NCBI GenBank assembly: GCA_963702895.1
Contig: OY969767.1
Coordinates: forward strand, 1,312,001 to 1,376,000
DNA from: an uncultured Elusimicrobia bacterium
Lineage (GTDB): Bacteria > Elusimicrobiota > Elusimicrobia > 2-01-FULL-59-12
Reading direction: 5' to 3'
DNA length: 64,000 nt
Shown: positions 38,720 to 61,626 of the stretch, piece by piece
Numbering within the stretch: position 1 is the first letter of the stretch
How the letters are laid out: every line of letters begins with the position of its first letter
Translations under genes and position numbers: made by a program
The notes under the pieces: model-generated
The model's input: only the letters and a program-made list of their open reading frames with translations
The model's database searches: none
What the model was told of the DNA's origin: nothing

Positions 38720-40423
38720 CTAAGAGGCCAATGCCTGGAGCGCTTTCTTCATGGCGTCCTGCAAGATCACCTCTTCCGCCACGGGTGCTGAACGTTTACG
38801 GAGCTCCACTTTCCCCTCGCTCAATTTGCGTTCCCCCACCACCAGACGAACGGGAATGCCGATTAAATCCGCGTCTTTGAGCTTGACACCCGCGGTCGCG
38901 TCCCGGTCGTCCAGAAGGACATCCCCATGCTGCGAAAGCGCTTCCTGGTAGAGCTTTTCCGCCACTTCCTTCACCTTGGGATTCGAGACATTGAGCGGCA
39001 CAATGACGAGCTTCCAAGGCGCGAGGGCGATGGGCCAGACGATACCGTTGGCGTCGTGGCATTGCTCGATACAGGCCGCCACCACACGTGAAACCCCGAT
39101 ACCGTAGCAGCCCATGACGAAAGGTTTGGCCTTCCCTTGAGGATCGAGGTAGGTGGCCTTCATGCTGTCGGAATACTTGGTGCCCAGTTTGAACGTGTGC
39201 CCGACTTCGATACCGCGTGCATACGCCATCGGTTGGCCGCATTTGGGGCAGGGGTCCCCGGCAGCCGCTTTACGCAGATCGGCATAGCGTTCTGGCTTAA
39301 AATCCCGTTCCGGGACAACGTGTATCAGGTGTTTGTCCTTCTGATTCGCACCGCAAACCCCCTCTGTCATGGAACGTATGGCGTAATCGGCAACCATCTT
39401 GGCTTTCGACCCCACGGGCCCCGCAAATCCAACAGGGGAACCAGAGAGTTGTGTGTAAGTCGCTTCATTGGCTTTCACCACGCGAGAGACACCCAGAAGG
39501 CGCTGTAATTTGGCTTCGTTGAGTTCATGGTCTCCGCGCAGGAGCACCATCACGGGTGCTTCATCCGCCAAGACCACCAGAGCCTTGATAAAGTGCTGGG
39601 CCGGTTGATGGACTATTTTGGCGACGGCATCGACGCTCGAGGCGCCCGGGGTAGTCACTTCCGTCCAAGGTCCGAGGTCCGACGCCGGACGTCGCACGTC
39701 GGCCGGCTTGGGAAGTTCAGCGCGCTCCACATTGGCCGCATAGCCACAGGAGCAGCTGACGATGCCCTCTTCCCCCGTCTCGGCCAGGACCATAAATTCG
39801 TGAGAGAAGGAGCCGCCAATGGCCCCCGACTCCGCTTCGACGGGCCGGAACCTCAGTCCGCAGCGCGTAAAGATCTTTTGATAGGCTTCCACCATGCGCT
39901 TGTAGTACTGCTCGACATCGGCCTCATCGGCATGGAAGGAATAGGCATCCTTCATGAGGAATTCGCGCGCGCGCATCACCCCGAAGCGCGGCCTGATTTC
40001 ATCTCTGTACTTCACGCCGAATTGATAAAGCATCACGGGCAACGAGCGATAGGAGCGGATTTCTCTTCGGACAAGGTCTGTGATCACTTCCTCAGCCGTG
40101 GGCGCGAGACAAAATTCGGCTTCTTTGCGGTCTTGGAGTCGCATCAGTTCTTTGCCATAAAGACCCCATCGGCCGGTCTCCTCCCAAAGCTCTTTCGGCT
40201 GAAGTTGCGGCAACCAGACCTCTTGCCCCCCTGCGGCGTTCATCTCCTCGCGGACGATCTGCTCGACATGCCGCAGGACGCGAAGCCCCATGGGGAGCCA
40301 TTCGTAGAGGCCGGCGGCGAGTTTTCGAATCAGGCCCGCGCGCAGCATGAGCTGATGCGAGACGGTTTCCGCATCACTCGGAAGTTCACGTTGCGTCGGG
40401 ATAAAGGCTTGAGAGTATCTCAT
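38720..40423 (-). CDS. proS: Proline--tRNA ligase (with editing domain)
   Basis: SHQLMLRAG, RDEIRPRFGVMRAREF, GIEVGHTFKLG and MGCYGIG. Confidence 0.97.
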   Translation of the reverse strand: MRYSQAFIPTQRELPSDAETVSHQLMLRAGLIRKLAAGLYEWLPMGLRVLRHVEQIVREEMNAAGGQEVWLPQLQPKELWEETGRWGLYGKELMRLQDRKEAEFCLAPTAEEVITDLVRREIRSYRSLPVMLYQFGVKYRDEIRPRFGVMRAREFLMKDAYSFHADEADVEQYYKRMVEAYQKIFTRCGLRFRPVEAESGAIGGSFSHEFMVLAETGEEGIVSCSCGYAANVERAELPKPADVRRPASDLGPWTEVTTPGASSVDAVAKIVHQPAQHFIKALVVLADEAPVMVLLRGDHELNEAKLQRLLGVSRVVKANEATYTQLSGSPVGFAGPVGSKAKMVADYAIRSMTEGVCGANQKDKHLIHVVPERDFKPERYADLRKAAAGDPCPKCGQPMAYARGIEVGHTFKLGTKYSDSMKATYLDPQGKAKPFVMGCYGIGVSRVVAACIEQCHDANGIVWPIALAPWKLVIVPLNVSNPKVKEVAEKLYQEALSQHGDVLLDDRDATAGVKLKDADLIGIPVRLVVGERKLSEGKVELRKRSAPVAEEVILQDAMKKALQALAS

Positions 40424-45590: not shown

Positions 45591-45694
45591 CCCATCACCT
45601 CTTGACGCCTCTTGGCAGCGCCTCGAGCGCCGCATAGGCCAGCCTGGAGGCGGGCGTTGGCGGCAGCGAAAAGGCGATCAAGAGGTGGTGGGGT
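45589..45694 (-). promoter_or_regulatory. Hairpin spanning the whole tsf-pyrH spacer and covering the pyrH SD
   Basis: 45590-45605 matches the reverse complement of 45678-45693 at 15/16, with further imperfect inner pairing. Confidence 0.65.
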
Positions 45695-46314
45695 CAATCT
45701 TTCCCCACTTCGTAGCGGGCAAAGCGGCGCAGGACGATTTTTTCCCCGGTCTTCGCCGATGCCTCGGTTAAGAGATCCTTCACCTTGAGCTTGCCGGAGG
45801 GCTCACGGACATAAGGCTGCTCCAGCAGACAGAATTCAGAGAGATATTTGTCGAGCTTGCCTTCTGCGATTTTCGCGGCGACAGGCGCGGGCTTATTTTC
45901 CTTCATGGCGTCCTGCTCAAATTCTTTTCGTTTCATGTCCATCGCTTCAGCCGGGACTTGATCCCGGGCCACCCAGCGAGGGCGCATCGCGGCGATCTGC
46001 ATGCCCAATTCTTTGACCAGGCTCTGAAAGTCATCGGTTCGTGCGACAAAATCGGTTTCACAGTTGAGTTCGAGGAGCACGCCCACAGACCCACCGACAT
46101 GGATGTAGGAACCCACCAGACCCTTGGACGTCTCGCGTCCTTCCCGTTTGGCCGCCAGAGCCACACCACGGTCACGAAGCCAGGCCTTGGCTTTGTCCAA
46201 ATCGCCGCTCGACTCCTCGAGGGCCTTTTTGCATTCCATAATGCCGGCACCGGTCTGCTCGCGCAGGTCTTGGATTTGCGTCGCCGTGATGGGATTGCCG
46301 TTTGATTTTGACAT
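45694..46314 (-). CDS. tsf: Elongation factor Ts (short form)
   Basis: LREQTGAGIMECKKAL and ELNCETDFVA; 206 aa. Confidence 0.96.
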   Translation of the reverse strand: MSKSNGNPITATQIQDLREQTGAGIMECKKALEESSGDLDKAKAWLRDRGVALAAKREGRETSKGLVGSYIHVGGSVGVLLELNCETDFVARTDDFQSLVKELGMQIAAMRPRWVARDQVPAEAMDMKRKEFEQDAMKENKPAPVAAKIAEGKLDKYLSEFCLLEQPYVREPSGKLKVKDLLTEASAKTGEKIVLRRFARYEVGKD

Positions 46315-46317
46315 CGC

Positions 46318-47136
46318 CTAGGAGCGGCTGGGTGTTGGGACTTCGCTGGCGGACGGCGCTTGCTCGGCCGAGGACAGGTCGATCGGCTGCGTCGACGCCT
46401 CCTGCTGAGGCCCTTCAGGCTTGGACGCGACGTTGGGCGTCGCGGCCTTTTCGGCTTCCGCCCTGCCTTCGAGAATCGCGTCCGCAATCAGAGCGCAAAA
46501 AAGCTTCACGGACCGGATGGCATCATCATTGCCCGGGATGGGGTAGTCGATCATGTCCGGGTCGCAATTGGTGTCGCAAACAGCCACAACCGGAATTTCC
46601 ATGCGGCGCGCTTCAAGAATCGCCGTCGTTTCCTGGACGGGATCGATGACAAAAAGGCACCCCGGAAGGCTCTCCATGCCCTTGATGCCGGAAAGGGTCT
46701 TGGTCAAACGCAGGCGTTCCTTTTCGAGACGCGAGACCTCTTTCTTGGACATCACGCGGAACAGGCCATCGGCTTTCATCTTGTCGAGCTCATTGAGCCG
46801 CCCGATCGAGCGCTTGATCGTTTCAAAATTGGTCAGCGTCCCCCCCAGCCAGCGCTCGCTCACATAATAAGCGTTACAGCGCTGAGCTTCGGTCAGGATG
46901 GCTTCCTGGGCTTGCTTTTTCGTACCGACAAAGAGGATCGGCCTGTTTTGCGTTGCGATATCGCGAATATACTTATAGGCCTTCTTAAGCTCCTTGGCTG
47001 TCTTTTGAAGGTCAATAATATGGATATTGCTGCGGGCTCCAAAGATATACTTCGCCATCTTGGGATTCCAACGACGCGTCTGATGCCCGAAATGCACCCC
47101 AGCCTCGAGCAAGGCCTTCATCGAGATTGTTGCCAT
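46318..47136 (-). CDS. rpsB: 30S ribosomal protein S2
   Basis: [28 protein letters not shown] and PGNDDAIRS. Confidence 0.98.
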
Positions 47137-47279: not shown

Positions 47280-48281
47280 TTATCGGGTACGGGTCACGAT
47301 GTACTGCGCGATGGCGGAAAGCGTTCTTTTTGGCGTCGAGTCGGGAAAGCTCTGTAAGGCGGCGCTCGCCTGTTGGGCAAAATTCGCGGCCTGGCGCAGA
47401 CCTTCTTGAATCGCTCCGGCATCTTTGGCCCAACGGACAATCTTCTGGGCATTTTCGCCCTGCGGATCCTTCAGACAAGCGAGAAAGGCTTCGCGCTGCG
47501 AGCCCGGGAGTTGATCGCGAAGCCAAATCAAGGGAAGCGTGAGCTTGCCGTTCACAAGGTCCGTCCGTAAGGTTTTTCCTGTGACTTCTTCTTCGCCTAT
47601 TAAATCCAGCGTGTCATCGATGATTTGGAAGGCCATCCCAAGGTTCCAACCGAAATGGGCGAGCGACGTGGCTTGATCGGAGGACAGGCGCGCCAGGCGC
47701 GCGCCGCCGCGCATGGAGGCCGCCATGAGCGTGGCGGTCTTGTTGTCGATAAAGGTGAGGTATTCGGCGACCGTGAGGTCGAGCTGGAACCTTCGCCGCA
47801 CCTGGTTGATTTCCCCCTGGCAGATCGAGCGCGTGGAGCGCGCAAAGAGTTCGACCAAGGACGGGTCCTGCAGCGAAGCCAGAAGCGTAAACGCCTCCAC
47901 ATAGAGCAGATCTCCCAAGAGGATCGCGACATCCTCACCATACTTCAGCGCAGCGGTGGGTTTCTGATGACGCAGGGCGGCGCGGTCGACAATATCGTCA
48001 TGGATCAGGGTGGCCAGGTGAATCAGCTCCGAGGCCGCTCCCACCGTGATGGGATCATCATTCTGGACGCCGCCGATCTGGGCGCTGAGCACCACGAGCG
48101 CCGGCCGCAAGCGTTTCCCGCCGGCCTGAACAATGTACTGCACGATCTCAGGAATCATCCCCTGACCGCGTGAGGCAACGTCCTGAAGGATCTTTTCGGT
48201 CTGAAGGAGATAAGGGAAGATATGCCGGTAGAGGTCCTCGAGGCGCTCTTCTTCTCGCTGGAGGGTCACACTTTTGCTCAT
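47280..48281 (-). CDS. Long-chain trans-polyprenyl diphosphate synthase (IspB/HepT-like)
   Basis: GGKRLRP, ATLIHDDIVD (small residue at -5) and FQIIDDTLD. Confidence 0.9.
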   Translation of the reverse strand: MSKSVTLQREEERLEDLYRHIFPYLLQTEKILQDVASRGQGMIPEIVQYIVQAGGKRLRPALVVLSAQIGGVQNDDPITVGAASELIHLATLIHDDIVDRAALRHQKPTAALKYGEDVAILLGDLLYVEAFTLLASLQDPSLVELFARSTRSICQGEINQVRRRFQLDLTVAEYLTFIDNKTATLMAASMRGGARLARLSSDQATSLAHFGWNLGMAFQIIDDTLDLIGEEEVTGKTLRTDLVNGKLTLPLIWLRDQLPGSQREAFLACLKDPQGENAQKIVRWAKDAGAIQEGLRQAANFAQQASAALQSFPDSTPKRTLSAIAQYIVTRTR

Positions 48282-49738
48282 GGCTCTAGCGTGACGGAGA
48301 CGACGGGCGGTGAGGGAAGAAACTTTTTCACATGCGCAATGCCCACCTGCGGAGCCACACCCAGAAAGAGCGTGGCAAAAGACGTGACCCCTAAAACGAG
48401 ACGCATCGAAAGCGAAAGACGGACCTCCGCCTTGGAACCGGACCCCTTAAAGTACATCGCGTGGAGAATCCTGAAGTAGTAGCCCACGGCGATGACGCTG
48501 TTAAGCAAAGCGATCACGAGAAGCGTGATCCAGCCCGCGTGGTAGGCAGCGGAAAAGACATAAAATTTCGCCACAAAGCCGGCCGTGGGAGGCAGCCCCG
48601 CGAGACTGATGAGGAAAAGGGCAAGGAGCGCGCTCAGGGTGGGCGAACGTCTGGAGAGGCCTTCGTAATCCGTCAAGTCGCTTGCATGCAGCGCTCGGGA
48701 GAGACAGATCACGATCGAGAAAGCGCCCAGGTTCATAAAAAGATAAATCCAACCGTAGAGATAAACGCTCGCCAGGCCTTCCTGCCCGCCCGCCAGGATG
48801 CCCAGAAGCACGTATCCCATATGCGCGATCGAGGAATACGCCAGGAGCCGGACCACGCTCTTCTGCTGGAGTCCAATGAGATTGGCGACGGTCATGGTGA
48901 GCGCAGCGAGCACGGCCAGAAGGTGGAAAACGCCAGGAGAACTGAGCGGCAGCGCAATGTTAAAAACGCGCACGACCAGCGCCGCTCCGACCATCTTGGG
49001 CGCCACCGAAAGATAGGCCGCGATCGGCGTCGGGGCCCCTTCGAACACATCGGGAACCCACAGATGGAAGGGGACAAGCGCCATCTTGAACCCAAAACTC
49101 ACGACGATAAAAAAGACCGCCAGTAGCGCGAGCGGCGCTTTTTCGTGAAAGACAGCGCCGCTCTGATGAAGCGCGGTGAGCGAGGTCGATCCGAGGAGTC
49201 CGTACAGAAGCGAAACACCGTAGGCCAGCATCGCGGATGAAAAAGCGCCGATGAGGAAGAATTTGATCGCGGCCTCAACTGACTTTTGCGATTTCCTGTA
49301 AAAACCCGTGAGGGTAAACGCGGGGATGCCGACCATTTCGATGGCCACGAAGATCATGAGGAAGTCCTGGGCGGCCACGGCGAGGAGCAAGCCGGTCGCC
49401 GACAGGAGCAGCATCCCATAATAGAGCGCCGAGGAAGAATCCGACCGGGCTGTTTCCTGTTCGCTGATGAGAACGACGAGCAGAGTGGACACGACGACGA
49501 TCCAGGACAGAAACATCGACAGCCCGTCCGCGACGAGCATCCCCCGGCCATAGACGACCGGAGCGCCATCCCCCGTATAGGGAAGAAAAGCCGCCGCGGC
49601 AAAAAGCCCCAGGACCGCGACCCCAAAGGCAGTCCGCGAGACTCTCGAACTCCCTTTCCTCTGGACCGCATCGATCCCAAAGAGGATGAAAGACACAGCG
49701 CTCAGGACGAGAGCCGGAGCGATGAGGACAAGTCTCAT
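48278..49738 (-). CDS. nuoN: NADH-quinone oxidoreductase subunit N
   Basis: EAAIKFF, FKMALVPFHLWVPDVFEGAP and LAYSSIAH. Confidence 0.92.
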   Translation of the reverse strand: MRLVLIAPALVLSAVSFILFGIDAVQRKGSSRVSRTAFGVAVLGLFAAAAFLPYTGDGAPVVYGRGMLVADGLSMFLSWIVVVSTLLVVLISEQETARSDSSSALYYGMLLLSATGLLLAVAAQDFLMIFVAIEMVGIPAFTLTGFYRKSQKSVEAAIKFFLIGAFSSAMLAYGVSLLYGLLGSTSLTALHQSGAVFHEKAPLALLAVFFIVVSFGFKMALVPFHLWVPDVFEGAPTPIAAYLSVAPKMVGAALVVRVFNIALPLSSPGVFHLLAVLAALTMTVANLIGLQQKSVVRLLAYSSIAHMGYVLLGILAGGQEGLASVYLYGWIYLFMNLGAFSIVICLSRALHASDLTDYEGLSRRSPTLSALLALFLISLAGLPPTAGFVAKFYVFSAAYHAGWITLLVIALLNSVIAVGYYFRILHAMYFKGSGSKAEVRLSLSMRLVLGVTSFATLFLGVAPQVGIAHVKKFLPSPPVVSVTLEP

Positions 49739-51213
49739 GGCTGCGCGACCTTCACCAAATCCGCCAAATGTGCGAGCGTCGCGTTCATGGGGGAAAGCAA
49801 CAGGGACGGCAGAATCCCAAAGAGTACCATGAGCACACAAAGGGGCACGACCGCGATGAGCTCCCGGGTATTCATATCGGGGAGCTTCTCCCATTTGGAA
49901 TTGAGCGCTCCCAAAAAGACTTTCTTAATCAGGACGAGGAAGAAGGCCGCCGTAATGAGGATGCCCAAAAGTGAAATGACCGTGAGGTAGCGATATTGAA
50001 CCACCTGGAAGGCCCCCAGGAAACAGAGGAACTCGCTCACGAAACCCGACAGCAGCGGCAGACCGAGCGAGGCGAAACACGCCAGCGTCGTGATGCCCGT
50101 ATAAACAGGGAGTTTCTCACCGAGGCCCCCGAAAGCGTTGATATCGCGGGTATGGGCACGGTCATAAAGAACACCGACCAAAAGGAACAAGGCGCCCGTG
50201 ATAATGCCGTGATTGATCATCTGCATCGCGGCACCCGAGAACCCGATCACATTCAGAGACGCCATACCGAGGAGCGCATACCCCATGTGATTCACCGAGG
50301 AATAGGCAATCATGCGTTTGATATCGGTTTGGGCCAGTGAGCAAAACGCGCCGTAGACGATGTTGATGGCCGCGATGATCGCCAGGGCCATCGCCAGTTT
50401 CTGCGTGGCCAGCGGCAGGAGGGCGAAGGAAAAGCGCAGCAGGCCATACGTCCCCATTTTGAGGAGCACCCCCGCCAGAAGGACCGACACGGCTGTCGGA
50501 GCTTCTACATGCGCCAGCGGCAGCCACGTATGGAACGGGAACGCCGGCACTTTCACCGCGAAGCCAAGATAAAAGCCTAGAAAAATCCAAAGCTGGAGCC
50601 CCATCGCCAGCTTCGGGCTTTGCTGGAGAATCTCCGTGTAATCGAAGGTGTGAGGCAGCGTGTTGAAATACAAAGCAAGAATCGCAATCAGCATGAAAAC
50701 GCTGCCAAAGAGCGTAAAGAGGAAGAATTTGATGGCGGCATACTCTTTCTTCGGGCCACCCCAGATGCCGATCAGGAAGTACATGGGGACCAGGGTCAGC
50801 TCCCAAAAGACGTAGAACAGGAAGAGGTCAAGCGCGAAAAAGACCCCGACCATACCGGTCTCAAGCATCAGGAAAAAGAAGAAATACTCTTTGACCCGTT
50901 CTTCGATATGAAAGGAGGCGATGATGGACAGGAGCGTGAGGAGGGTGGTGAGCACCACCAGCGCAAGCGAGAGCCCGTCCACGCCCATCAAATACTGGAT
51001 GTTAAAAGCGGGAACCCAGGACATCCTTTCCAGAAACTTAAAGTCCGGCGTCGAGGCATCGTAATGCGCCCACAGCCATAAGGAGGCAAGAAAAGCACCC
51101 CCCGCGGAGATCGCGGCCACGACGCGCACGAGCTGCGTCTTTTCCTTTGGCAGGCAAAGCAAAGTGACAGCGCCCAACAAGGGCAGAAAGGTGATGAAGG
51201 AAAGTACGCCCAT
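49735..51213 (-). CDS. nuoM: NADH-quinone oxidoreductase subunit M
   Basis: FYVFWE, PFHTWLPLAHVEAP, LLKMG and AYSSVNH. Confidence 0.94.
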   Translation of the reverse strand: MGVLSFITFLPLLGAVTLLCLPKEKTQLVRVVAAISAGGAFLASLWLWAHYDASTPDFKFLERMSWVPAFNIQYLMGVDGLSLALVVLTTLLTLLSIIASFHIEERVKEYFFFFLMLETGMVGVFFALDLFLFYVFWELTLVPMYFLIGIWGGPKKEYAAIKFFLFTLFGSVFMLIAILALYFNTLPHTFDYTEILQQSPKLAMGLQLWIFLGFYLGFAVKVPAFPFHTWLPLAHVEAPTAVSVLLAGVLLKMGTYGLLRFSFALLPLATQKLAMALAIIAAINIVYGAFCSLAQTDIKRMIAYSSVNHMGYALLGMASLNVIGFSGAAMQMINHGIITGALFLLVGVLYDRAHTRDINAFGGLGEKLPVYTGITTLACFASLGLPLLSGFVSEFLCFLGAFQVVQYRYLTVISLLGILITAAFFLVLIKKVFLGALNSKWEKLPDMNTRELIAVVPLCVLMVLFGILPSLLLSPMNATLAHLADLVKVAQP

Positions 51214-51232
51214 CGAAGCCTCCTCGTGTCTG

Positions 51233-53176
51233 CTAGTGTTTCACAATAAAAGAATTGAAAGCCATCATCAAAGCGACCAGCGCCATCGTCATGATCAACA
51301 GATAGTTCTGCACCAAACCGTTCTGCACGCGCCGGGCGATCGCGCCCAGACCCATGGCGCCCGAACCCGTCCCGTCCACAGCGCCGTCCACAATGCGCTC
51401 ATCAAACCATGTCTGCATTTTGGACCAGAGCCGGGCCATCCAGCCAAAACCATCGACAAAGATCTTGTCCAGCACGTGAAAATCAAACCAAGCCAGAACC
51501 TCTGCCAGGCGCACGGTGGGACGGACCACCACCGCCCAATAGAACTCGTCCACGTAATAGTTGTGCTGCAGGAGTCTGTGCACGGGCGCAAAAACGGCGG
51601 CCAGCCGTTTCACCGTATCGAGCGATCGCAGGTACAGCGCGCCGCCCACGAGGAGTCCCGCGAGTCCGGAGCCGAGAGCGACATATCCCACCCAGCGCGG
51701 TTCGGCCATAGCATGAAGCGTGCGCATCGGGAAGAACCTCACCAAGGTCCCAGGCGCGTGCATGAAGTAGCCCAGCACGAGGGACGGGATAGCCAGGAGG
51801 ATGAGCGGCACCGTCATGGTCCAGGGCGATTCGTGCGCGTGGGCGAAGCGGTCACGCTCACGCGGCTCGCCCAGAAAGACCAATGCAAAGACGCGCGTCA
51901 TATAGAGCGAGGTCAAAAACGCCCCGGCGCACCCGATGGCATACAAGAGCAGATGGTGAGACACGAAGTCGGCGGCCAGAATCATCTCTTTCGAGAAATA
52001 GCCTGAGGTCCCGAAGAAACCGACCAGCGCCAGGGCGCCAAAGAGAAAGGTCCAGAAAGTCGTAGGCATCTGTTTGGACAGGCTTCCCATCTTCCAGATG
52101 TCGTTGGTATGAACGGAATGAATGATGGACCCCGCGGCGAGGAAGAGGAGCGCCTTAAACGCCGCATGCGTCGTCAGGTGAAAGAGTCCCGCGGAATACC
52201 CTCCCACGCCAAGACCCATGATCATGTATCCCAATTGGGAGATCGTGGAATAGGCGAGGACCTTTTTGACGTCATTGGCCGCAAGCGCGATGGTCGCGGC
52301 GAAGATGGCCGTGATGCCCCCGACCCAGGCCACGACTTCCATCGCTTGCGGCGCCAGCAGAAAGAAAGCGTAGGACCTGGCGACCAGATAAACCCCCGCG
52401 GCCACCATGGTCGCCGCGTGAATGAGAGCGGAGACCGGCGTGGGGCCCTCCATCGCGTCCGGCAGCCAGACGTGCAGCGGCAGTTGTGCCGATTTCCCGA
52501 CTGTGCCGCAGAATATGAGAAGGGAAATCAGCATCGCCATGTGTTGGGTCACATCGCCATCGTGAATATGCATCTGAATCTGGTTGAAGTTGAAGGTGCC
52601 GACAAAGAAATAGACGGTGAGAAGCCCGGCGTAGAAGCCCAGATCTCCCAGGCGCGTCGTCAAGAAAGCCTTGTTGCCGGCTTGGGCGGCGGCATCGCGT
52701 TCAAATTCAAAGGAAATGAGAAAGTAGGAACAGGCCCCCATGATTTCCCAGCCGATGAAAAACTGGATGTAATTGTTCGCCAGGACCAAAGCCAGCATCG
52801 CCGCGCTGAAGAGCGAAAGATATGAAAAGAAACGTTTAAACCGGGGCGCCTCATGCATGTAGCCTATGGAATAGATCTGGATGAGAGCGCTGATGCCGCT
52901 CACCGCCACAATCAAAACGAGGGACGGTCCATCCAACAACACGCCCCATTCAAACTGAAAGAGCCCAACCTCAAACCACGGATAAGAGATTTCCATGGGC
53001 AGTTTGAGCGATCCGTCCAAGACCTGCATCAAAAGATCAAAGGAGATTCCGAAGCTGACCAAGACGGCCAGGACCCCGAGAAGCGCGCCTTTCAGGGGCA
53101 ACCATCTACCGAAAAAGAAAATGAGCAGAGCCGCAACAAAAGGAGCCAGGGGTACCCAGTAAGCGTAATTAACCAT
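51233..53176 (-). CDS. nuoL: NADH-quinone oxidoreductase subunit L
   Basis: GKSAQLPLHVWLPDAMEGPTPVSALIHAATMV and HAAFKALLF. Confidence 0.95.
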   Translation of the reverse strand: MVNYAYWVPLAPFVAALLIFFFGRWLPLKGALLGVLAVLVSFGISFDLLMQVLDGSLKLPMEISYPWFEVGLFQFEWGVLLDGPSLVLIVAVSGISALIQIYSIGYMHEAPRFKRFFSYLSLFSAAMLALVLANNYIQFFIGWEIMGACSYFLISFEFERDAAAQAGNKAFLTTRLGDLGFYAGLLTVYFFVGTFNFNQIQMHIHDGDVTQHMAMLISLLIFCGTVGKSAQLPLHVWLPDAMEGPTPVSALIHAATMVAAGVYLVARSYAFFLLAPQAMEVVAWVGGITAIFAATIALAANDVKKVLAYSTISQLGYMIMGLGVGGYSAGLFHLTTHAAFKALLFLAAGSIIHSVHTNDIWKMGSLSKQMPTTFWTFLFGALALVGFFGTSGYFSKEMILAADFVSHHLLLYAIGCAGAFLTSLYMTRVFALVFLGEPRERDRFAHAHESPWTMTVPLILLAIPSLVLGYFMHAPGTLVRFFPMRTLHAMAEPRWVGYVALGSGLAGLLVGGALYLRSLDTVKRLAAVFAPVHRLLQHNYYVDEFYWAVVVRPTVRLAEVLAWFDFHVLDKIFVDGFGWMARLWSKMQTWFDERIVDGAVDGTGSGAMGLGAIARRVQNGLVQNYLLIMTMALVALMMAFNSFIVKH

Positions 53177-53480
53177 GGAGAAGGCTCAACTTTTCCGCGT
53201 AAACGCTCTTGATGTTCCGATAAATGACCAAAACAAGAGACAATCCGACCACCGCTTCGGCGGCCGCGAGGGTCATGACAAAAATGACAAAACCCTGGCC
53301 CCACACCTGGCCTGGATGGAGGTACCGGTTGAAAGCGATGAGGTTGATGTTGGCCGCGTTAAACATGAGCTCAATGGACATAAGGATCCCGAGGATGTTC
53401 CGGCGGGAGAGGACCCCATAAATTCCAATGCCGAAGAGGACCGCGGAGAGCATCAAGAAGTGGTGGAGGGAGAGCATCAC
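53169..53480 (-). CDS. nuoK: NADH-quinone oxidoreductase subunit K
   Basis: LMSIELMFNA and AAAEAVVGL. Confidence 0.94.
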   Translation of the reverse strand: MMLSLHHFLMLSAVLFGIGIYGVLSRRNILGILMSIELMFNAANINLIAFNRYLHPGQVWGQGFVIFVMTLAAAEAVVGLSLVLVIYRNIKSVYAEKLSLLHG

Positions 53481-53995
53481 GACTTCTCCTTTTCTTGGCA
53501 GAAGTAAATGGCGCCAATGAGCGCCGCCAGGAGCACCAGCGACACCACTTCAAAAGGGACGAGCATCTCTCCGAGCAGAAGCTTCCCGATGAGGGCGGTC
53601 GTCGGCAAAGGACTGCTGGTCTGAACAACATCCCGGTAAGCGGCCCGGAACGGCAGGAGGAGACCGCCCGCGACGACGGCGGCGAAGAGTAGCGCCAGAG
53701 GCCACTGTTCATTGGCTTGGCGCTCCAGCTCCGCCACGGGACGCTGCGAGAGCATGATCACGAAGAGCATGATAATCATAATTCCGCCGACGTAGATCAG
53801 GAGTTGACTGGCTGCTACAAAATCAGCTCCCAGAAGAGCATAAAGACCGGCGACAACGCTCAGCGCGCCGGTGAGCGCGATCGCGCTGTGAAAGACAGAC
53901 TTGGACGTCACCACGACCACCGAAAGACCGATGAGGGCCAAGGCCATCAGCGCGAAAACGAGCATCTGTAACCGATCAGGGGTTAAGAACGCCAT
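53477..53995 (-). CDS. nuoJ: NADH-quinone oxidoreductase subunit J
   Basis: QLLIYVGGI and PFEVVSLVLLAALIGA; ATG 53995 overlaps the nuoH end. Confidence 0.92.
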   Translation of the reverse strand: MAFLTPDRLQMLVFALMALALIGLSVVVVTSKSVFHSAIALTGALSVVAGLYALLGADFVAASQLLIYVGGIMIIMLFVIMLSQRPVAELERQANEQWPLALLFAAVVAGGLLLPFRAAYRDVVQTSSPLPTTALIGKLLLGEMLVPFEVVSLVLLAALIGAIYFCQEKEKS

Positions 53996-55059
53996 AAAAT
54001 CATGACACCCGCCAGAGCAATGTTCGCGATCGACCAGGGCAGGAGAAACTGCCAGCAAAACTGCATGAGACGGTCCACCCGCAGCCGAGGGAAAGTCCAG
54101 CGAAACCAGAGAAAAAGAAAGACAACGCCAAAGGTCTTGGCCAGAAAGTACAGCCAGGAAGGAATCAGCCCCCCCGCCCCAAAGCCGTCCCCCCCGCCCA
54201 GGAAAAGCGCGGTTGCCATCGCGGCCGAAAGAAACACATAGGCGTATTCCGCGAGGAAAAAGAGCGCAAACTTAAGTCCCGAGAATTCCGTGTGAAACCC
54301 GGACACGAGTTCCGATTCCGCTTCCGGGATATCAAAGGGAGTCCTGTTGGTCTCGGCGACAGAAGCGATCAAGAAAATAAGGAACGCCAGCTGGCCCACC
54401 ACAGGATAAAAGATAAACCACTTTGGGAGCACCCCCATCCACCTTCCCCCCTGGGCCATCGCAATGCTCGAGAGGCTCTGGGTGCCGTAGTACATCAGCA
54501 CGGGCACCACCGACAAGATGCGCGGGATTTCGTAGGAGACGAGCTGTGCCGCCCCGCGCAGCCCCCCCAGCATGGAAAACTTGTTACCCGAACCCCATCC
54601 GGCCATCAGGATCCCGATGGAGGAGATGCCCGAGACGGCAAAGATAAACAGGACCCCAATATCAAGATCAATGGGGATGAGGCCCTGTCCAAAAGGAACA
54701 GGCGCAAAACAGACAAAAACCGGAGCGCACACCACGATCGGCGCCAGGATATGCACAAGACGGTCCGCGCCAACGGGGATAATATCTTCCTTAAAGAAGA
54801 GCTTAATGCCGTCCGCCAAGGTTTGGAGGATGCCGTAGGGACCGACTTCCATGGGACCGAGCCGGGCCTGCATTAAGGCTGAGATTTTGCGTTCCGCATA
54901 AACAAGAACCATGGGCACGAGCGATACCCCGAGCACCACCACTCCGGTTTGAATCGATTTGGCCAAGATCCACGCGCCCAGTGGGGGCACGCCCTGCGCC
55001 ACCACCTGAGCCTGGAGCTCGGCGAAGAGGTTGGACAAGACCGGCCCAAGCTCCAGCAT
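53983..55059 (-). CDS. nuoH: NADH-quinone oxidoreductase subunit H
   Basis: AERKISA..RLGP, ADGIKLFFKE, AQLVSYE and ETNRTPFDIPEAESEL. Confidence 0.95.
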   Translation of the reverse strand: MLELGPVLSNLFAELQAQVVAQGVPPLGAWILAKSIQTGVVVLGVSLVPMVLVYAERKISALMQARLGPMEVGPYGILQTLADGIKLFFKEDIIPVGADRLVHILAPIVVCAPVFVCFAPVPFGQGLIPIDLDIGVLFIFAVSGISSIGILMAGWGSGNKFSMLGGLRGAAQLVSYEIPRILSVVPVLMYYGTQSLSSIAMAQGGRWMGVLPKWFIFYPVVGQLAFLIFLIASVAETNRTPFDIPEAESELVSGFHTEFSGLKFALFFLAEYAYVFLSAAMATALFLGGGDGFGAGGLIPSWLYFLAKTFGVVFLFLWFRWTFPRLRVDRLMQFCWQFLLPWSIANIALAGVMILWRS

Positions 55060-56210
55060 CAGCGGTCGACCTCCCCTAAGACAATATCCACGCTCCCTAA
55101 AATCGCGATCACGTCGGAGACTTTCCAGCCTTTCAGGAGGACCTGAAGGACTTGTAAATTCACGAAGGATGGGGCGCGAATGTGCATCCGGTAAGGGCAC
55201 AGCGTGCCGTCACTGACGATATAAAATCCCAAGTCCCCCCGTGGGGCCTCGAGGTGCCCATAACCTTCCCCCGGCGGAACACGGAAGGTTTTCGCGATTT
55301 TCCCCATGGTTTCCCCAGGCTTCATTTGGTCTAACGCCTGTTCAATAATCTTGAGACTTTCTCGCATTTCCTGAATGCGCACCTGATAACGGTCCCAACA
55401 ATCTCCCTCGTTCCCGACCGGAATGTCAAACTGGATCTTGGGATAGAGGCTGTAAGGGTCATCTTTTCGCACATCCGCTTTCATCCCGGACGCACGAAGG
55501 TTGGGGCCCGTGATGCCCCAGGCGATGGCCATTTCCTTGGACATTTTGCCGATGCCTCGGGTACGGTCGATGAAAATGGGATTGAAGGTGAGAAGCGTGT
55601 CATATTCCTTGATGCGCTCCGCCATTTCCTTAATAAAGCGTCGCACCTTCTCTTCCCAGCCCGCGGGAGCATCCGCCATGACACCACCGATGCGAATATA
55701 GTTATACGTCAGCCGAGCGCCGCAGATTTCTTCGAAAAGATCCAGGATCCGCTCGCGGTCACGACCAAAGGCGATCAGAAACGGTGTGAAGGCTCCTATA
55801 TCGATGGCGTAAGTGCCCAGGAAGACGCAATGGGAGGCCATGCGCTGGAGTTCCCCCACAATGATGCGCAGGTAATCGGCGCGTTCCGGGATCGCCACAC
55901 CCATCATCTTTTCGACCGCAAGGCAATAGGCCCAGTTGTTGGTCATGGCCGCCAGGTAATCCAGCCGGTCTGTCAAAACGATGATTTGGGGATAGGTGCG
56001 TTTTTCCGCGAGCTTTTCCGTGGCACGGTGCAAATAGCCCAGGTCCGGCTGGGCACTCGTGACCCGTTCCCCGTCGACCGTGATCGCGACCCGCAGCACG
56101 CCATGGGTCGAGGGGTGTTGTGGCCCCAGGCTGATGAACATGCCGCTTTCCGGCGCTTGCCGCGGAAAAACCTCAGGGGCTATGGAGGGAAGAGTGGGTT
56201 CGTTGGCCAT
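55059..56210 (-). CDS. nuoD: NADH-quinone oxidoreductase subunit D
   Basis: GPQHPSTHGVLR, GYLHRATEK, DRLDY and DIVLGEVDR; no NiFe CxxC ligands. Confidence 0.95.
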   Translation of the reverse strand: MANEPTLPSIAPEVFPRQAPESGMFISLGPQHPSTHGVLRVAITVDGERVTSAQPDLGYLHRATEKLAEKRTYPQIIVLTDRLDYLAAMTNNWAYCLAVEKMMGVAIPERADYLRIIVGELQRMASHCVFLGTYAIDIGAFTPFLIAFGRDRERILDLFEEICGARLTYNYIRIGGVMADAPAGWEEKVRRFIKEMAERIKEYDTLLTFNPIFIDRTRGIGKMSKEMAIAWGITGPNLRASGMKADVRKDDPYSLYPKIQFDIPVGNEGDCWDRYQVRIQEMRESLKIIEQALDQMKPGETMGKIAKTFRVPPGEGYGHLEAPRGDLGFYIVSDGTLCPYRMHIRAPSFVNLQVLQVLLKGWKVSDVIAILGSVDIVLGEVDR

Positions 56211-56218
56211 ACTCGCCT

Positions 56219-56692
56219 TTAATCGTAACGGTCAGCTTGGGAGACGTAATCTTTACGAAGGGGGTAGCCTTCCCAATCCTCGGGCAAAAGAATGCGGCGC
56301 AAATTATAGTGCCCGGCAAAGCGTATCCCCATGAGGTCGAAGATTTCTCTTTCTTGCCAGTCGGCCGTGGGCCAGATTTTGGCGATGGACGGCACTTCGG
56401 GCTGCGCGCGGTCCTCGACACGCACTTTGATCACGAGCTTATGCTTATGGAGCGTGGAGAGCAGGTAATAGACCACTTCAAAGTGGGTCTTCCAATCAAT
56501 CGAGGTCACAAACGAAAGAAAATCAAAGGACAAGGGCGGATCATAACGGAGGAACTGAGAGACTTCGGAAAGTTGAGAAGCCGGAACATTCAAATAAAGT
56601 TCATCGCCGCGTGCTTGAGCTTCTGGCTTGGGAATGTCTTGGACCGTTGGAAACTTCGCCTGGATCGCGCTCAGGAGCTCGGCGGGGTTCAA
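56219..56692 (-). CDS. nuoC: NADH-quinone oxidoreductase subunit C
   Basis: [26 protein letters not shown]. Confidence 0.93.
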
Positions 56693-57219
56693 GCGAGCGT
56701 CTCGGCTTTCTTCTTCGCGGCGCTGAGCATGCTGTAGCGCTGGATCTTCTTCTGCAAGGTGATCACGCCCTGCAGAAGGGCCTCCGGACGCGGCGGGCAG
56801 CCCGGCACGTAGATATCGACGGGAATGATTTTATCGACCCCCTTGCAGACAGAATAGGCGTCGTAATAGGGTCCACCCGAATTGGAGCAGGAACCCATCG
56901 AAATCACATAGCGGGGCTCAGGCATTTGGTGGTAAAGGAGCTCGATACGCGGCGCCATTTTCTTCGTGACGGTGCCCGCGATGATCATGAGGTCGGCCTG
57001 CCGGGGTGTGGGGCGAGGGATCACGCCCAGCCTGTCAAAATCAAATTTGCTCGCGTAAGAGGACATCATCTCGATCGCGCAGCAAGCCAGTCCAAAGGTC
57101 AAAGGCCAGACGCTGGATTTCCTTGCCCAATTGATAAAGAAGTCCGCCGTGGTCATGAGGAGCGAGCCGCCCGGAAGGTGCTCCAGGTAGACGGGACCTT
57201 GATCGAGCAAAATGCCCAT
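56689..57219 (-). CDS. nuoB: NADH-quinone oxidoreductase subunit B
   Basis: [13 protein letters not shown] and [11 protein letters not shown] (N2 cluster ligands). Confidence 0.96.
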
Positions 57220-57582
57220 TTATTTCTTCCACTGGAGCGCCCCGCGGCGCCACGCGTAGATCAGGCCGAAAAACAGAACTCCTATAAAGAGGAGCATGCT
57301 CACAAAGCCGTTCCACCCGAGTTCGCGGAAGATCACGGCCCAAGGGTAGAGGTAGAGGGATTCGATGTCGAAGACCACAAAGAGCAGCGCGAAAATATAA
57401 AAATTGATGTCCATGGGGACATAAGGCGTCCCCAGGGGTTCCATGCCGCACTCATAGGCGATCTTCTGCCGCTCGTCATGGCTTTTAAAACGGAGCAGAG
57501 GCGACAGAACAAGGAGATTGACCACCGCAAAGCCCGCGCCGAAGAGCACAAAAATCAGGACATGGCCGTACTGCGCTAGCAT
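57220..57582 (-). CDS. nuoA: NADH-quinone oxidoreductase subunit A
   Basis: YECG, FVVFDIE..YPWA and GALQW. Confidence 0.95.
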   Translation of the reverse strand: MLAQYGHVLIFVLFGAGFAVVNLLVLSPLLRFKSHDERQKIAYECGMEPLGTPYVPMDINFYIFALLFVVFDIESLYLYPWAVIFRELGWNGFVSMLLFIGVLFFGLIYAWRRGALQWKK

Positions 57583-58274
57583 GGCTTCTTGCCCTCGTAC
57601 AATTGGACCGCACCCAGGGTGAGGGGCCTGTGCCGCACGTCCTGAAAGCCCGCCTCTTGCAGCATGTCACAGACCTCTCCGGGCTCATAAAAATCGCGGA
57701 TGGTGCTGGCGAGATAGTCTTTCGGCCAGCGGTCCTTACAGACCCATTGACCGATGAGCGGCAAGCCAATACGGAGGTGCACGCGGTGACCGAGCTTGGA
57801 AATAGGCGAGCTGGGCCGCCCAAAATCCATGTGCAGAACTTGGCCGCCCTGCCTGAGGACACGGAAGTTTTCACGGAAGACCGCGTGGAGCGATCCCCGG
57901 AGGTTGCGCAGCGCGAAGGCCGAGGTGACGCAACCAAAGGAGCGGTCGGAAAACGGCAGTTTGTCCGCGGAACCATTCATCCAACGGATTTGGCTTTGAC
58001 GGTCTTTGGCTCGAGCTTGCTCCAGCATCCGTTCGGAAAAGTCAAGGCCCACGACCTCGTGTCCCGCCTTCAACGCCCAAAACGCCACATCGCCGGTCCC
58101 GGTCGCAAGATCCAACACCCGGGCGCCTTGGGGGATATGCCTCACCAGCGTTTTTCGCCAATGGTGATCGAGGCCCAAGCTCGCCCACGCGTTAAAACGA
58201 TCGTAATCAGAGGCGATACGATCGAACATGAAACGGAGATGGGGATCGCGGGGTGGCGATACGGCAGATGTCAC
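57576..58274 (-). CDS. menG: UbiE/MenG family quinone biosynthesis methyltransferase
   Basis: MFDRIASDYD, VLDLATGTGD, DFSERML, AFALRN and RVLRQGG; start GTG 58274 or ATG 58229. Confidence 0.85.
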   Translation of the reverse strand: MTSAVSPPRDPHLRFMFDRIASDYDRFNAWASLGLDHHWRKTLVRHIPQGARVLDLATGTGDVAFWALKAGHEVVGLDFSERMLEQARAKDRQSQIRWMNGSADKLPFSDRSFGCVTSAFALRNLRGSLHAVFRENFRVLRQGGQVLHMDFGRPSSPISKLGHRVHLRIGLPLIGQWVCKDRWPKDYLASTIRDFYEPGEVCDMLQEAGFQDVRHRPLTLGAVQLYEGKKPC

Positions 58275-58278
58275 TGAT

Positions 58279-58461
58279 CTACTGAAGGTCTTCAGCCCCG
58301 AGGGTCTTCTTGGTACCATCGGCCTTTACTTTTTCAATGGAGGCCTGGACGAGCTGCCCGATACGGCTGGAAAGAGCCTCGACATAATCACCGCCTGTGC
58401 GGAAACCCGCTTCCTTCACCATCTTCTTCACTTTGCTGACCACCACGAGCGTTTCGGCCAT
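58279..58461 (-). CDS. Bacterial histone-fold protein (Bd0055/HBb-like singlet)
   Basis: 60 aa MAETLVVVSKVKKMVKEAG...ADGTKKTLGAEDLQ; LVVxSKVK start and xKTxxxxD end as recalled for bacterial histones; SD GGAGG. Confidence 0.85.
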   Translation of the reverse strand: MAETLVVVSKVKKMVKEAGFRTGGDYVEALSSRIGQLVQASIEKVKADGTKKTLGAEDLQ

Positions 58462-58520
58462 AACGTTTGCCCTCCAGTTGGGATTAGTACCAGGTAATGT
58501 TAGTGTGAGAAAGAAGGCTC

Positions 58521-58550
58521 AATATAGCCGGAGAACGCCCCTGTTGTCAA
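58521..58550 (-). promoter_or_regulatory. Near-consensus sigma70 promoter upstream of the histone gene
   Basis: TTGACA (58550-58545), 18 nt, TATATT (58526-58521). Confidence 0.7.
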
Positions 58551-58568
58551 CGGGGATGGAGACAAGGG

Positions 58569-59660
58569 TTAGGGTAGAGCAGGGGAGGGGCGCGAGGCGG
58601 CTAGCTCTTTGATCAGGCGCACATGTTCATCCGTATCCCAAAGCGCGGCCCCCTCATGCTTGACGACCATCCGTCCTTGCGGCGAGATGATGATGGTGGC
58701 AGGGACTCCTGAGATCTGATACGCGGAAGGCCATGTCCCGACGAGGCGGGCAAAGGGAAGGCCAAGCTTTTCCCGCTTCACGTATTTGGCGATCACGGGA
58801 AGTTCTTCATTGGACAAGCATAGGAAGGCAATCCGATCATCGTCTTTGACTCTATCATAGAGACGCTGCAGGCTGGGCATTTCGATTTTACACGGTCCAC
58901 ACCAGGTCGCCCAGAAATTCAGCACGACGACCTTGCCCCTCAGGCTCTGCACGGGTAGTTCACGACCGTCCAGACCTTGCGCTCTCCACCCAAAATCCGC
59001 CGGCGCGTCGAGTCGCGTAATGACAGGAGGCCGTAGAAATCGTCGCATGAACGTGCTGTTGCCAGCCGTGATCAGCAGCCCTGCCACCAACGTGATGAGG
59101 ACGACGCCTGCAACCAGGACGTTCGGTAAAAGAAAGGATCCAATCGCCCTTCTTACGCTGAACCCGCATAGCACCCGTATCATCCAGATCAGAAGGACAG
59201 CTTTCCAGATCTCCATCGACCATATCATCGGCTGGGAGGATTCGGCCAGATGAGTCAGCACGATAAAAGGGGATTCGATCAAGACACAGCCCGTCCAGAA
59301 GGTCTTGAAGGGAACCTTGGCGCCCAGGATCCTGGATCCCGCGTACAGCACCGCTCCAAACAAAGTGATGGCAGCAAGAGAGATGGGAATGACAAGAAAC
59401 GAAAAATATCTCGCCACAGAGAGCGGCGCGTGTGTCCAGTGCCAGAGGAGACGGACACCTCTCGCGTAGGCGTGTTGCTGCGGCGGCGTGAGAAAATCGG
59501 CCAGTGTGAAAAACGATTGTATGATCAAGATGACCAGCAAGACGAGAAAGACTTCAACGGTCGGAGGGTCGTCGCGCAGTCGTTGGAACGCCGAAGCGGG
59601 CCTGACCAAAAGATTCCAGTAGGGCAGCTGGCGAAATGGCTTAGAAGGGCCTGTGAACAT
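58569..59660 (-). CDS. Membrane protein: Yip1-like TM domain fused to a TlpA/ResA redoxin
   Basis: LLVRPSxAF-like start and about 5 TMs, then GKVVVLNFWATWCGPCKIEMPSL and GVPAT. Confidence 0.75.
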   Translation of the reverse strand: MFTGPSKPFRQLPYWNLLVRPASAFQRLRDDPPTVEVFLVLLVILIIQSFFTLADFLTPPQQHAYARGVRLLWHWTHAPLSVARYFSFLVIPISLAAITLFGAVLYAGSRILGAKVPFKTFWTGCVLIESPFIVLTHLAESSQPMIWSMEIWKAVLLIWMIRVLCGFSVRRAIGSFLLPNVLVAGVVLITLVAGLLITAGNSTFMRRFLRPPVITRLDAPADFGWRAQGLDGRELPVQSLRGKVVVLNFWATWCGPCKIEMPSLQRLYDRVKDDDRIAFLCLSNEELPVIAKYVKREKLGLPFARLVGTWPSAYQISGVPATIIISPQGRMVVKHEGAALWDTDEHVRLIKELAASRPSPALP

Positions 59661-59804
59661 GCTTATCCTCGGCGTTCAATCTTTCAACTTTGATTCACCA
59701 TGATGTCATTATTACAAAAGAGAGACCTTCGTATGTCCGTTTTCCGTCTGCCCTAGGGACTGTCGTCTTATGGGTCGAGGCGGGTTCCCGTGAAGGCCTG
59801 CTGA

Positions 59805-60773
59805 TCATCTTCGCGCCACCAGGCTCTGGCCTCCTTGAATTTCCCCTTCCGAAAACGCTCGGATTTTATCTCGAGACTCGATCAGGAGCGCACCAGAAGC
59901 GTTGACGCCAATGGCAACACCCCTCACCTGACCATCGGTTGTCTGAAGGGTCACCGGCTGGCGGGGCGCGTCATAGTGGGACCAGTATCGCGCCTGGAAG
60001 GGTCCAAAGCCCTCTTTCTGGAAGCGTCGATAGGCCGGACGGAATTCGTCGAGAAAGGCCGCCAAAAGTGCAGCTCTCTTGGACCGCTTGCCCGTAAGCT
60101 CGGCAACCGAGATGGCCCGGCCTCTCAGAGATCTCGGCACAGTGTTATGGACATTAACGCCGATGCCGAGCACGACCCATTCCGTACGATCGATTTGTCC
60201 GGACATGTCCGTGAGGACTCCCGCCAGCTTCTTTCCTTGAACGAGAAGATCATTCGGCCACTTGAGTCGCGCTTGGACGCCGCAGGTTTTCTCGATGGCC
60301 TCCCGGAGGCACAGGCCGGCTAGAAGTGTGAGCGGTGGAATGCGCGGTGCGGGCAAGGAAGGTCGCAGCAACAGCGAGAACCAAAGCCCGCCATAGGGAG
60401 ACTCCCAGACTCTTTCGAGACGGCCTCGCCCCTTGGACTGCATCTCGGCGATCCAAAGATGACCTTCGGGAAGTCCGGAAACTCCCCCTTCTTTGGCGAG
60501 AGTTTGGGTGGAACGGGTGGTGAGGAAGTAATGGGGAATGGTCCAGGACCCTTTCGCGGGCCTCCAGTCCATGAGCGATGGATCCGGCGTCACGGAAAAG
60601 CGATAACCGCGGCGTTCGGCGCTTTCGATGGGAAATCCCATGCCCGCCAAGGCCTGCACCTGCTTCCAAATCGCCACGCGTGAGACCTTGAGGCGCTTCG
60701 CTAAGAGCTCGCCCGACACCACCGATCGGGGCTTTTCACTTAAAGCTCGAAGCAGGCGCTCACGAATCGACAC
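59805..60773 (-). CDS. birA: Bifunctional biotin--protein ligase/repressor BirA
   Basis: HTH SGELLAKRLKVSRVAIWKQV; QSKGRGRLERVW, KWPND and KKLAG; GTG 60773 chosen as start. Confidence 0.93.
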   Translation of the reverse strand: MSIRERLLRALSEKPRSVVSGELLAKRLKVSRVAIWKQVQALAGMGFPIESAERRGYRFSVTPDPSLMDWRPAKGSWTIPHYFLTTRSTQTLAKEGGVSGLPEGHLWIAEMQSKGRGRLERVWESPYGGLWFSLLLRPSLPAPRIPPLTLLAGLCLREAIEKTCGVQARLKWPNDLLVQGKKLAGVLTDMSGQIDRTEWVVLGIGVNVHNTVPRSLRGRAISVAELTGKRSKRAALLAAFLDEFRPAYRRFQKEGFGPFQARYWSHYDAPRQPVTLQTTDGQVRGVAIGVNASGALLIESRDKIRAFSEGEIQGGQSLVARR

Positions 60774-61626
60774 GGGTGATATGCAAACTGCAGTCAAAGG
60801 CCTTGACGGAGTGCGTCAGGCAACCCATCGAGATGCGATCGGCGCCTAAGCGGCCCAACTGGCGGAGGTTTTCAGGACGCACGCCGCCTGTGATCTCGAT
60901 TTCGATGCCGGGCACCTGCTTTCGGAGCAGGCGGATCATCCTCTTCATCACGCGAGGTGACAGATTATCCAGAAGGACCCGATGCGCTTTGATTTGAAGC
61001 GCGTCGTGCAAGTCCCTTTGTGTTTGGATTTCGACTTGGACCAGGGTGTGAGGGTGTCGGCGATGCCAGCGCTTGATCCGGGAGGCCCAGTCCCGACCCG
61101 CGAGGCGCACCACCTCGAGGTGGTTTTCCTTAATCATCATCGCTTCCCCCAGGGACATGCGATGGTTCTTCGCGCCGCCACAGCGGACCGCGTATTTCTG
61201 CAAGGCCCTCCAACCCGGAAGTGTTTTGCGCGTATCAAAAAGAGTGGCGGAAGACCCTTTGAGCAATTCCACCTGGGCATGGGTAAAGGTGGCAATACCC
61301 GACAAGTGCTGCAGCGCGTTGAGCGCCGGGCGCTCCGCGGACAAGACAGACCTCGCCTTCCCCTTCATGACAGCGAGGACCTGGCGAGCTTGGACATGAT
61401 CGCCATCCCGAGCGAGCGGCCTGAAATAAATGGAAGGATCAAACGCCCTAAAAACTTGACGGACCAGCGGCAGTCCAGCGATCACACCGGCGTGATTGGC
61501 GGTGATGGCGGCATGGACGCGCCAGGCGGGGTGGATCAAGAGACGCGTGGTGATGTCCGAACGGGCGGAATCTTCCTGGAGAGCGGAACGAACGAGGGCG
61601 CGAAGGCTATTTGTATTGGGAAACAC
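60760..61626 (-). CDS. nadC: Nicotinate-nucleotide pyrophosphorylase (carboxylating)
   Basis: ALQED..DITT, LSGIAT, DTRKTLPG, NHR, IKENH and LLDN. Confidence 0.93.
   Translation of the reverse strand: MFPNTNSLRALVRSALQEDSARSDITTRLLIHPAWRVHAAITANHAGVIAGLPLVRQVFRAFDPSIYFRPLARDGDHVQARQVLAVMKGKARSVLSAERPALNALQHLSGIATFTHAQVELLKGSSATLFDTRKTLPGWRALQKYAVRCGGAKNHRMSLGEAMMIKENHLEVVRLAGRDWASRIKRWHRRHPHTLVQVEIQTQRDLHDALQIKAHRVLLDNLSPRVMKRMIRLLRKQVPGIEIEITGGVRPENLRQLGRLGADRISMGCLTHSVKAFDCSLHITRVDS

Follow-up and report, generated by a model that had tools for sequence, protein, structure and literature searches.

The window analysed here, a 64,000-nt stretch of the genome of an uncultured Elusimicrobia bacterium (G000 in our set), carries on its minus strand a 60-aa gene (58279..58461; ATG start, TAG stop) whose product is, judged by sequence and modelled structure, an alpha3-type single-fold bacterial histone of an Elusimicrobiota clade. 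Behind it on the same strand lie the gene for a UbiE/MenG-family quinone methyltransferase (57576..58274), ten genes of complex I (nuoA, B, C, D, H, J, K, L, M and N; 48278..57582), a polyprenyl synthetase gene (47280..48281) and the pair rpsB-tsf (45694..47136). On its 5′ side, again on the minus strand, are nadC, birA and a gene for a Yip1-TlpA fusion (58569..61626).

The histone gene and the genes behind it

The 60-aa gene had been claimed in an earlier note on this DNA, and the ORF is conserved in same-family orthologs. Compared with nine of these, 16–32 of 58 codons carry synonymous changes and 8–15 carry residue-changing ones; because synonymous changes exceed replacements against all nine, we regard the gene as real. 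The near-consensus promoter and Shine-Dalgarno sequence of the earlier note are also in place. GGAGG can be read 9 nt 5′ of the ATG (58471..58475, minus strand), and a sigma-70-type promoter-like site, TTGACA-18-TATATT, is predicted upstream of it (58521..58550, minus strand; 11/12). A scan of the 2.72 Mb genome gave 24 promoter-like sites matching at 11/12 and no perfect 12/12 site, and the histone site is the sole minus-strand site called between positions 40000 and 58700 of the window. Sites scoring 9/12 or more occur 5′ of the histone at 25 of 50 ortholog loci (one further locus, too short, was left out), where base shuffles would give 7.5; for the same-family histone loci the figure is nine of ten.

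The predicted promoter likely serves both the histone and the whole gene run behind it. The proposal of high histone expression was overstated, its entire basis being the promoter and the Shine-Dalgarno sequence. Codon usage, a test of little power, ranks the histone at percentile 56 among background windows of 59 codons; the same test gives 38 and 51 for the HU/IHF genes and scatters 25 reference genes, chosen by sequence features, between percentiles 1 and 97.

The methyltransferase gene begins with a GTG at 58274, 4 nt past the histone stop, and no terminator-like site was called between that stop and nuoA, in agreement with what had been proposed. A terminator scan of positions 57000–60500 called four sites, against 3.4 in shuffles, and two of the four lie inside nuoA. 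Two same-genus orthologs of the methyltransferase begin at a similar place, but the frame might instead open with an ATG at 58229. The stop of the methyltransferase gene overlaps the start of nuoA and, measured to the longest ORFs, no gap in the run that the histone opens and the polyprenyl synthetase closes exceeds 19 nt, which bears out the operon-like packing of the histone with the methyltransferase and nuo genes. A single transcript would cover this entire run. At one related locus (L012, in genome G018) a G+C-rich hairpin and T-run were noticed by eye directly after the histone stop, and this suggests that in G018 many transcripts would end 3′ of the histone.

The methyltransferase matches PF01209 (E 1e-42) and exceeds the cut-off of TIGR01934 (189 against 158 bits). 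Its earlier label, menG, is thus reasonable as a name and correct as to the UbiE/MenG subfamily; the narrower assignment to MenG is less secure, as neither a MenG- nor a UbiE-specific model was passed. All ten nuo genes have Pfam matches; nuoL, nuoM and nuoN, which share PF00361, were told apart by gene order. The run in the window is without nuoE, F, G and I. A nuoI match above cut-off (TIGR01971) lies about 520 kb away (G000:C1:846862-847203) and a nuoF-like gene, below cut-off, lies at G000:C1:139423-140622, so that complex I would be split over at least three loci. The polyprenyl synthetase (PF00348, E 2e-65), likely for the quinone side chain, is the last gene of the packed run and is followed after a 143-nt gap by rpsB.

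On the 5′ side, nadC-birA is a border often found in relatives, and birA lies within 1.5 kb 5′ of the histone at three of 29 other loci; the upstream link is much looser than the downstream one. The fusion of a Yip1 domain and a TlpA-like thioredoxin between birA and the histone promoter (58569-59660, minus strand) is a local feature, present within 1.5 kb 5′ of the histone at none of the 29.

Protein identity and comparison with known histones

Searches of Pfam (E up to 1) and NCBIfam (E up to 0.1) returned no match for the histone. Sequence matches against the PDB were led by HBb, the Bd0055 protein of Bdellovibrio bacteriovorus (PDB 8FVX, 8CMP; E 4.1e-9 over residues 1-58, 39.3 bits), followed by HLp of Leptospira perolatii (9QT0; 5e-6, 29.7 bits) and HTkC of Thermococcus kodakarensis (9F2C; 1e-3, 22.5 bits). 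The start of Bd0055 given in the earlier note and its segment ADGRKTVMARD agree with the PDB chain. An AlphaFold2 model built on a 57-row alignment (pLDDT 81.7) has helices at residues 3-17, 24-48 and 56-59. Of 48,161 chains searched, the three that resemble the model most are HLp (Z 6.4, rmsd 2.4, 56 residues aligned), HBb (6.2, 1.9, 56) and HTkC (6.2, 2.3, 56); many of the lower matches are histone folds too. As a Z below 8 is not decisive alone for a small helical protein, we relied on fold and sequence together, and with HLp, HBb and HTkC on top in both searches the histone fold claimed earlier is supported as a prediction.

In the sections of Schwab 2024 (PMC11390915) available to us, alpha3 histones are defined by an alpha3 of 3–4 residues and a shortened alpha2. 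Model, fold search and sequence concur on the three-helix fold of this prokaryotic group; the modelled alpha3 has four residues, and alpha2 aligns gap-free to those of HBb and HLp. With a predicted pI of 9.1, and by analogy with HBb, the protein is likely a DNA-bending chromosome protein. A homolog search found 803 proteins; among the 120 matches listed, the nine with an organism name are all from Elusimicrobia. Many homologs are matched twice by the profile (P0123, P0124, P0140, P0145, P0149 and similar proteins, mostly of 118–150 aa and some longer, up to 279 aa), consistent with doublet histones related to the Elusimicrobiota clade. Weaker second matches, with E from 4e-10 to 8e-4, occur at G024:C22:39170, G027:C37:13553, G019:C60:19229, G142:C4:37280, G005:C52:18504 and G038:C14:54270, and may represent second histones of another type or, in G038, a fragment.

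The protein clade is already catalogued. Elusimicrobia singlet histones given in Table S1 of Hocher 2023 (PMC10627809; OGR57714.1, OGR84132.1 and others) belong to it: they are 59 aa long, end in KKTLGAEDL or KKTLGSEDL and have the same insertion in loop L2, and the string ‘KTLG’ occurs 20 times in each of two supplementary files of that study; the clade, insertion included, also stands in an alignment file. Those histones are listed by homology; as far as the paper was available to us, no member is characterized and no neighbourhood described, and neither ‘synteny’ nor ‘operon’ appears in its main text.

HBb is the closest characterized relative by sequence, with 45% identity over 56 aligned residues. 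The two proteins share the single fold, the short alpha2, the one-turn alpha3, the S9-K10 motif and K52-T53, and both are without the face-to-face R/N pair. They differ in that the Elusimicrobiota histone has an L2 one residue longer, an L1 one residue shorter and a chain four residues shorter. The L2 insertion and the sequence KKTLGAED, on which the earlier note had founded its variant DNA-binding loop, are visible in the alignment with HBb. In the RxTxxxxD motif T53 and D58 are kept at the right spacing and the Arg is replaced by Lys, so that a K51-D58 bridge would stand in place of the RD clamp. Insertion and lysine are therefore present as described; their special status is not, for they are the phylum-wide norm and already appear in a published alignment. 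Of 51 orthologs, 45 have Lys at the clamp position and the other six Arg, whereas Arg dominates among distant relatives (52 R against 9 K, counted over the rows that fit the motif, the 9 K including the query and a close ortholog).

Ten DNA-contact residues of HBb are named in the portions consulted of Hu 2024 (PMC11317129) and its preprint. Six of them are identical here (S9, K10, K12, K16, K52 and T53), and four are changed: N22 to Arg, T8 to Val, S24 to Gly and R57 to Glu. K10, K12 and K16 are invariant in 57 aligned sequences, and the glutamate at the place of HBb R57 is found in 51/51 orthologs. The protein would contact DNA through S9, K10, K12, K16, R21, K52 and T53; since three contact residues of HBb are lost, binding may be weaker or of a different geometry.

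Classification is less direct. In the same text of Schwab 2024, Elusimicrobiota figure among the main hosts of bacterial dimer histones, a category that yielded no confident model beyond the dimer and for which sequence grouping with HBb is the only criterion offered; the supplements of that paper, in so far as they were searched, gave no match for a per-protein category assignment. In keeping with a bacterial dimer, K44 and D48 replace the face-to-face Arg and Asn, and the alpha1 lysines are present. HBb is the best PDB match, yet our tree sets the Elusimicrobiota rows apart from the HBb-like rows. The tree has 77 rows (61 of 149 new matches that passed a length and motif filter, plus 16 orthologs; HBb itself was left out) and 60 columns, and it resolves few forks, six of 74 being starred. 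The Elusimicrobiota rows fall outside a group of HBb-like rows and all 23 triad-bearing rows (branch 96/89), a placement to be read as a hint only. Because of this separation, we use HBb as an analogy and not as a shown ortholog.

Gene order in the class and across the phylum

In our class sample of 41 genomes, 33 have the histone, and in all 33 nuoA lies 3′ of it on the same contig and strand, at a distance of 90 bp to 3.5 kb. The gene between the two varies: at 32 loci it is menG-like in 20, MidA-like (PF02636) in ten and absent in two. As a conserved partner of the histone, menG must accordingly be given up. A full-text literature search found no published report of the histone-nuo gene order, although subscription papers and supplements might contain one; the link, which is non-obligate, is apparently unpublished.

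The MidA/NDUFAF7-family genes were noted at L034, L035, L036, L039, L040, L070 and L071, and G000 has a MidA-like gene elsewhere (C1:1843221-1844279). The human relative methylates the counterpart of NuoD (PMC3829151, in the part consulted), which makes the MidA-like genes candidates for a bacterial complex I modifier. A tRNA-Met gene was considered as a fixed neighbour of the histone and dismissed, being present at only four of 50 loci. At one locus (L036:3370-4522, G019) an ORF that we take to be integrase-like overlaps the tRNA-Met just 5′ of the histone, a possible integration site.

The synteny survey confines the histone-nuoA link to the class. Our phylum sample comprised 131 genomes, 36 of them with the histone: 12 in the class, all nuoA-linked, and 24 in other classes, none of which shows nuoA behind the histone. 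A strong nuoA match exists in only two of these 24 (313 kb off in G055, on another contig in G095). Conversely, family f15 has nuoA at E 3e-19 or better in five of seven genomes and the histone in none of them. In G037 (91% complete) DUF3108 is separated by only some 15 bp from MidA, which nuoA follows, and a profile search found no histone there at E 0.1; its family mates G014 and G024 hold the histone at that place. Families f8 (0/40) and f17 (0/37) have neither the histone nor a strong nuoA match, although these absences reflect few independent events. Perfect joint gain and loss of the histone and complex I, apparent among the 41 class relatives, failed in the 131-genome sample, and G003 was discarded as a case of histone loss, its contig ending inside menG. 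The earlier view of a histone tied to respiration thus stands as gene order in one class (33/33) and falls as dependency, either part being kept alone. A split of the phylum into respiring lineages with complex I and lineages using Rnf is described in bioRxiv 10.1101/765248; in the text of that preprint available to us, ‘histone’ occurs 0 times.

Common to the classes is a backbone, nadC-birA...histone-[slot]-rpsB-tsf, whose slot holds Nuo in the genome studied here and whose conserved downstream border is rpsB-tsf. Histone and rpsB share a contig in 20 own-class genomes; in 16 of them rpsB follows the histone at 11–27 kb with the same orientation, and in four it is on the opposite strand; 13 own-class genomes stood outside this count. 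In the other classes rpsB is found 3′ of the histone in nine of 24. The interval between them contains rnf genes in five genomes (G101, G129, G131, G133 and G149), is empty in two that have no rnfC (G095 and G147) and holds other genes in G055. Three further other-class loci show a NusG-II/HepS-I/ApbE block before the contig ends. This block usually accompanies Rnf, and in G131 the two are seen together directly. In 15 of the 24 no redox module follows the histone, and 13 of the 15 have rnfC elsewhere; rnfC and rpsB are adjacent without the histone in G097, G102, G118, G142 and G151. Upstream, nadC and/or birA, often with uvrB, precede the histone at nine of 20 other-class loci examined, and rex lies directly 5′ of it at five loci overall. 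G044 (L085:444-7537) has rex, the histone and then a membrane-only Nuo-like module of H-, K-, L-, M- and N-like genes with two unmatched ORFs; there are no B, C or D genes ahead of rpsB.

Histone function and the meaning of its position

Our data as a whole are best explained, with a probability of roughly two in three, by an HBb-like homodimer that binds and bends DNA independently of sequence, and whose promoter is likely shared with the quinone and complex I genes through inherited gene order. In such a model the homodimer would act on chromosomal DNA without sequence preference, as HBb does genome-wide (Hu 2024, PMC11317129, main findings as consulted), beside two HU/IHF proteins. The slot of an old backbone would hold nuo in the class, and synthesis of the histone and of complex I would start together there, neither requiring the other. 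The nuo genes are apparently without a consensus promoter of their own, which would explain why the histone has stayed at the head of the operon. Joint transcription of histone and nuo in the class is probable on the sequence evidence and does not imply a shared function: related bacteria keep the histone or complex I alone, so the link is probably one of inherited gene order and not of functional partnership. The likeness to HBb has its limits, as the Elusimicrobiota histone has been lost in several lineages and HBb, according to the same paper, could not be deleted.

The tight downstream link and the ion-pumping modules, which follow the histone in six of the 24 other-class genomes, would fit a real co-regulation equally well. 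Selection might have coupled histone supply to whichever ion-pumping redox complex is the principal one (Nuo in the class, Rnf or a Nuo-like membrane module elsewhere), so that chromosome packing tracks energy state or growth. It would account for a link that persists in 33/33 class genomes although the intervening gene is swapped or lost, for rnfC within 10 kb 3′ of the histone in 5/24 other-class genomes and the Nuo-like membrane module in 1/24, for the three loci with a NusG-II/HepS-I/ApbE block, for the five with Rex directly 5′, and for the shared absence of histone and strong nuoA match in f8 and f17. We nevertheless consider it unlikely. Most other-class genomes (15/24) have no redox module behind the histone, 13 of those 15 with rnfC elsewhere; G037 and 5/7 f15 genomes have nuoA but no histone; and the joint absence in f8 and f17 amounts to a few events at most, mostly in small genomes. 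A Rex-like box (up to two mismatches of 14 from the known consensus) was found 5′ of the histone at none of 51 loci, and Rex regulation was rejected for G000, where no Rex was found and no box lies upstream. Far more improbable is the recruitment of the fold as a local complex I factor, whether to regulate the operon specifically or to aid assembly, in place of a general chromosome protein: the histone is the first gene of the operon in 33/33, some DNA-contact residues are lost and the two HU/IHF genes of G000 could cover chromosome packing, but the same protein occurs in 22 of the 24 other-class genomes without a strong nuoA match, the basic DNA-binding face is conserved and HBb itself binds throughout the genome.

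A further alternative concerns structure where selected coupling concerns regulation, and the two readings are not mutually exclusive. HLp and HTkC have the same alpha3-truncated fold (Z 6.4 and 6.2), and the histone might behave like these face-to-face proteins, forming a DNA-wrapping tetramer in which a K44-E57 or K44-C-terminus bridge replaces the usual Arg/Asn network. The alignment to HLp is ungapped over residues 3-48, and K44, invariant in 51/51 orthologs, falls on R49, a residue within the HLp tetramer interface (PMC12701072, in the part consulted). E57 is likewise invariant, as is G55, and stands where HLp has its interface residue T61; the chain stops 1–2 residues past the clamp residue D58 as it does in HLp, whereas HBb has 64 residues; and the fold matches to HLp and HBb are on a par. 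We hold a tetramer to be doubtful all the same, because the defining triad of HLp, R49/N53/R55, reads K44/D48/K51 here and position 48, which may be D, E, A, V or S, is Asn in none of the 51 orthologs, because bit scores favour HBb (39.3 against 29.7 and 22.5), because Schwab 2024 puts Elusimicrobiota under bacterial dimers and because the Elusimicrobiota rows are not nested among the 23 triad-bearing sequences. HLp also differs in setting, since its gene adjoins smc and its hosts are without HU (PMC12701072, as consulted), whereas G000 has two HU/IHF genes. We give little credence to a more speculative picture, in which the Elusimicrobiota histones would be neither HBb-type dimers nor HLp-type tetramers but a third kind of single-fold histone in bacteria, with an invariant K44/E57 interface of their own. 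Their gene would head a slot for energy modules in which complex I has replaced Rnf, so that histone supply is wired to the ion-pumping redox machinery.

The DNA-bending homodimer with an inherited place at the head of the operon therefore remains our preferred model. HBb and HLp are the only single-fold bacterial histones with solved structures in the literature examined. The Elusimicrobiota clade is strongly conserved, has a lysine at the clamp and reverses the charge of a main DNA-contact residue; it thereby offers an inexpensive way to learn which residues are essential to a bacterial histone. What is new here is the backbone shared between classes, with its slot in Nuo, Rnf and empty states. 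Because the comparative data favour the plain reading of kept gene order, the surprise is limited; should the promoter prove to be shared and under regulation, however, it would link the supply of a chromosome protein directly to energy metabolism.
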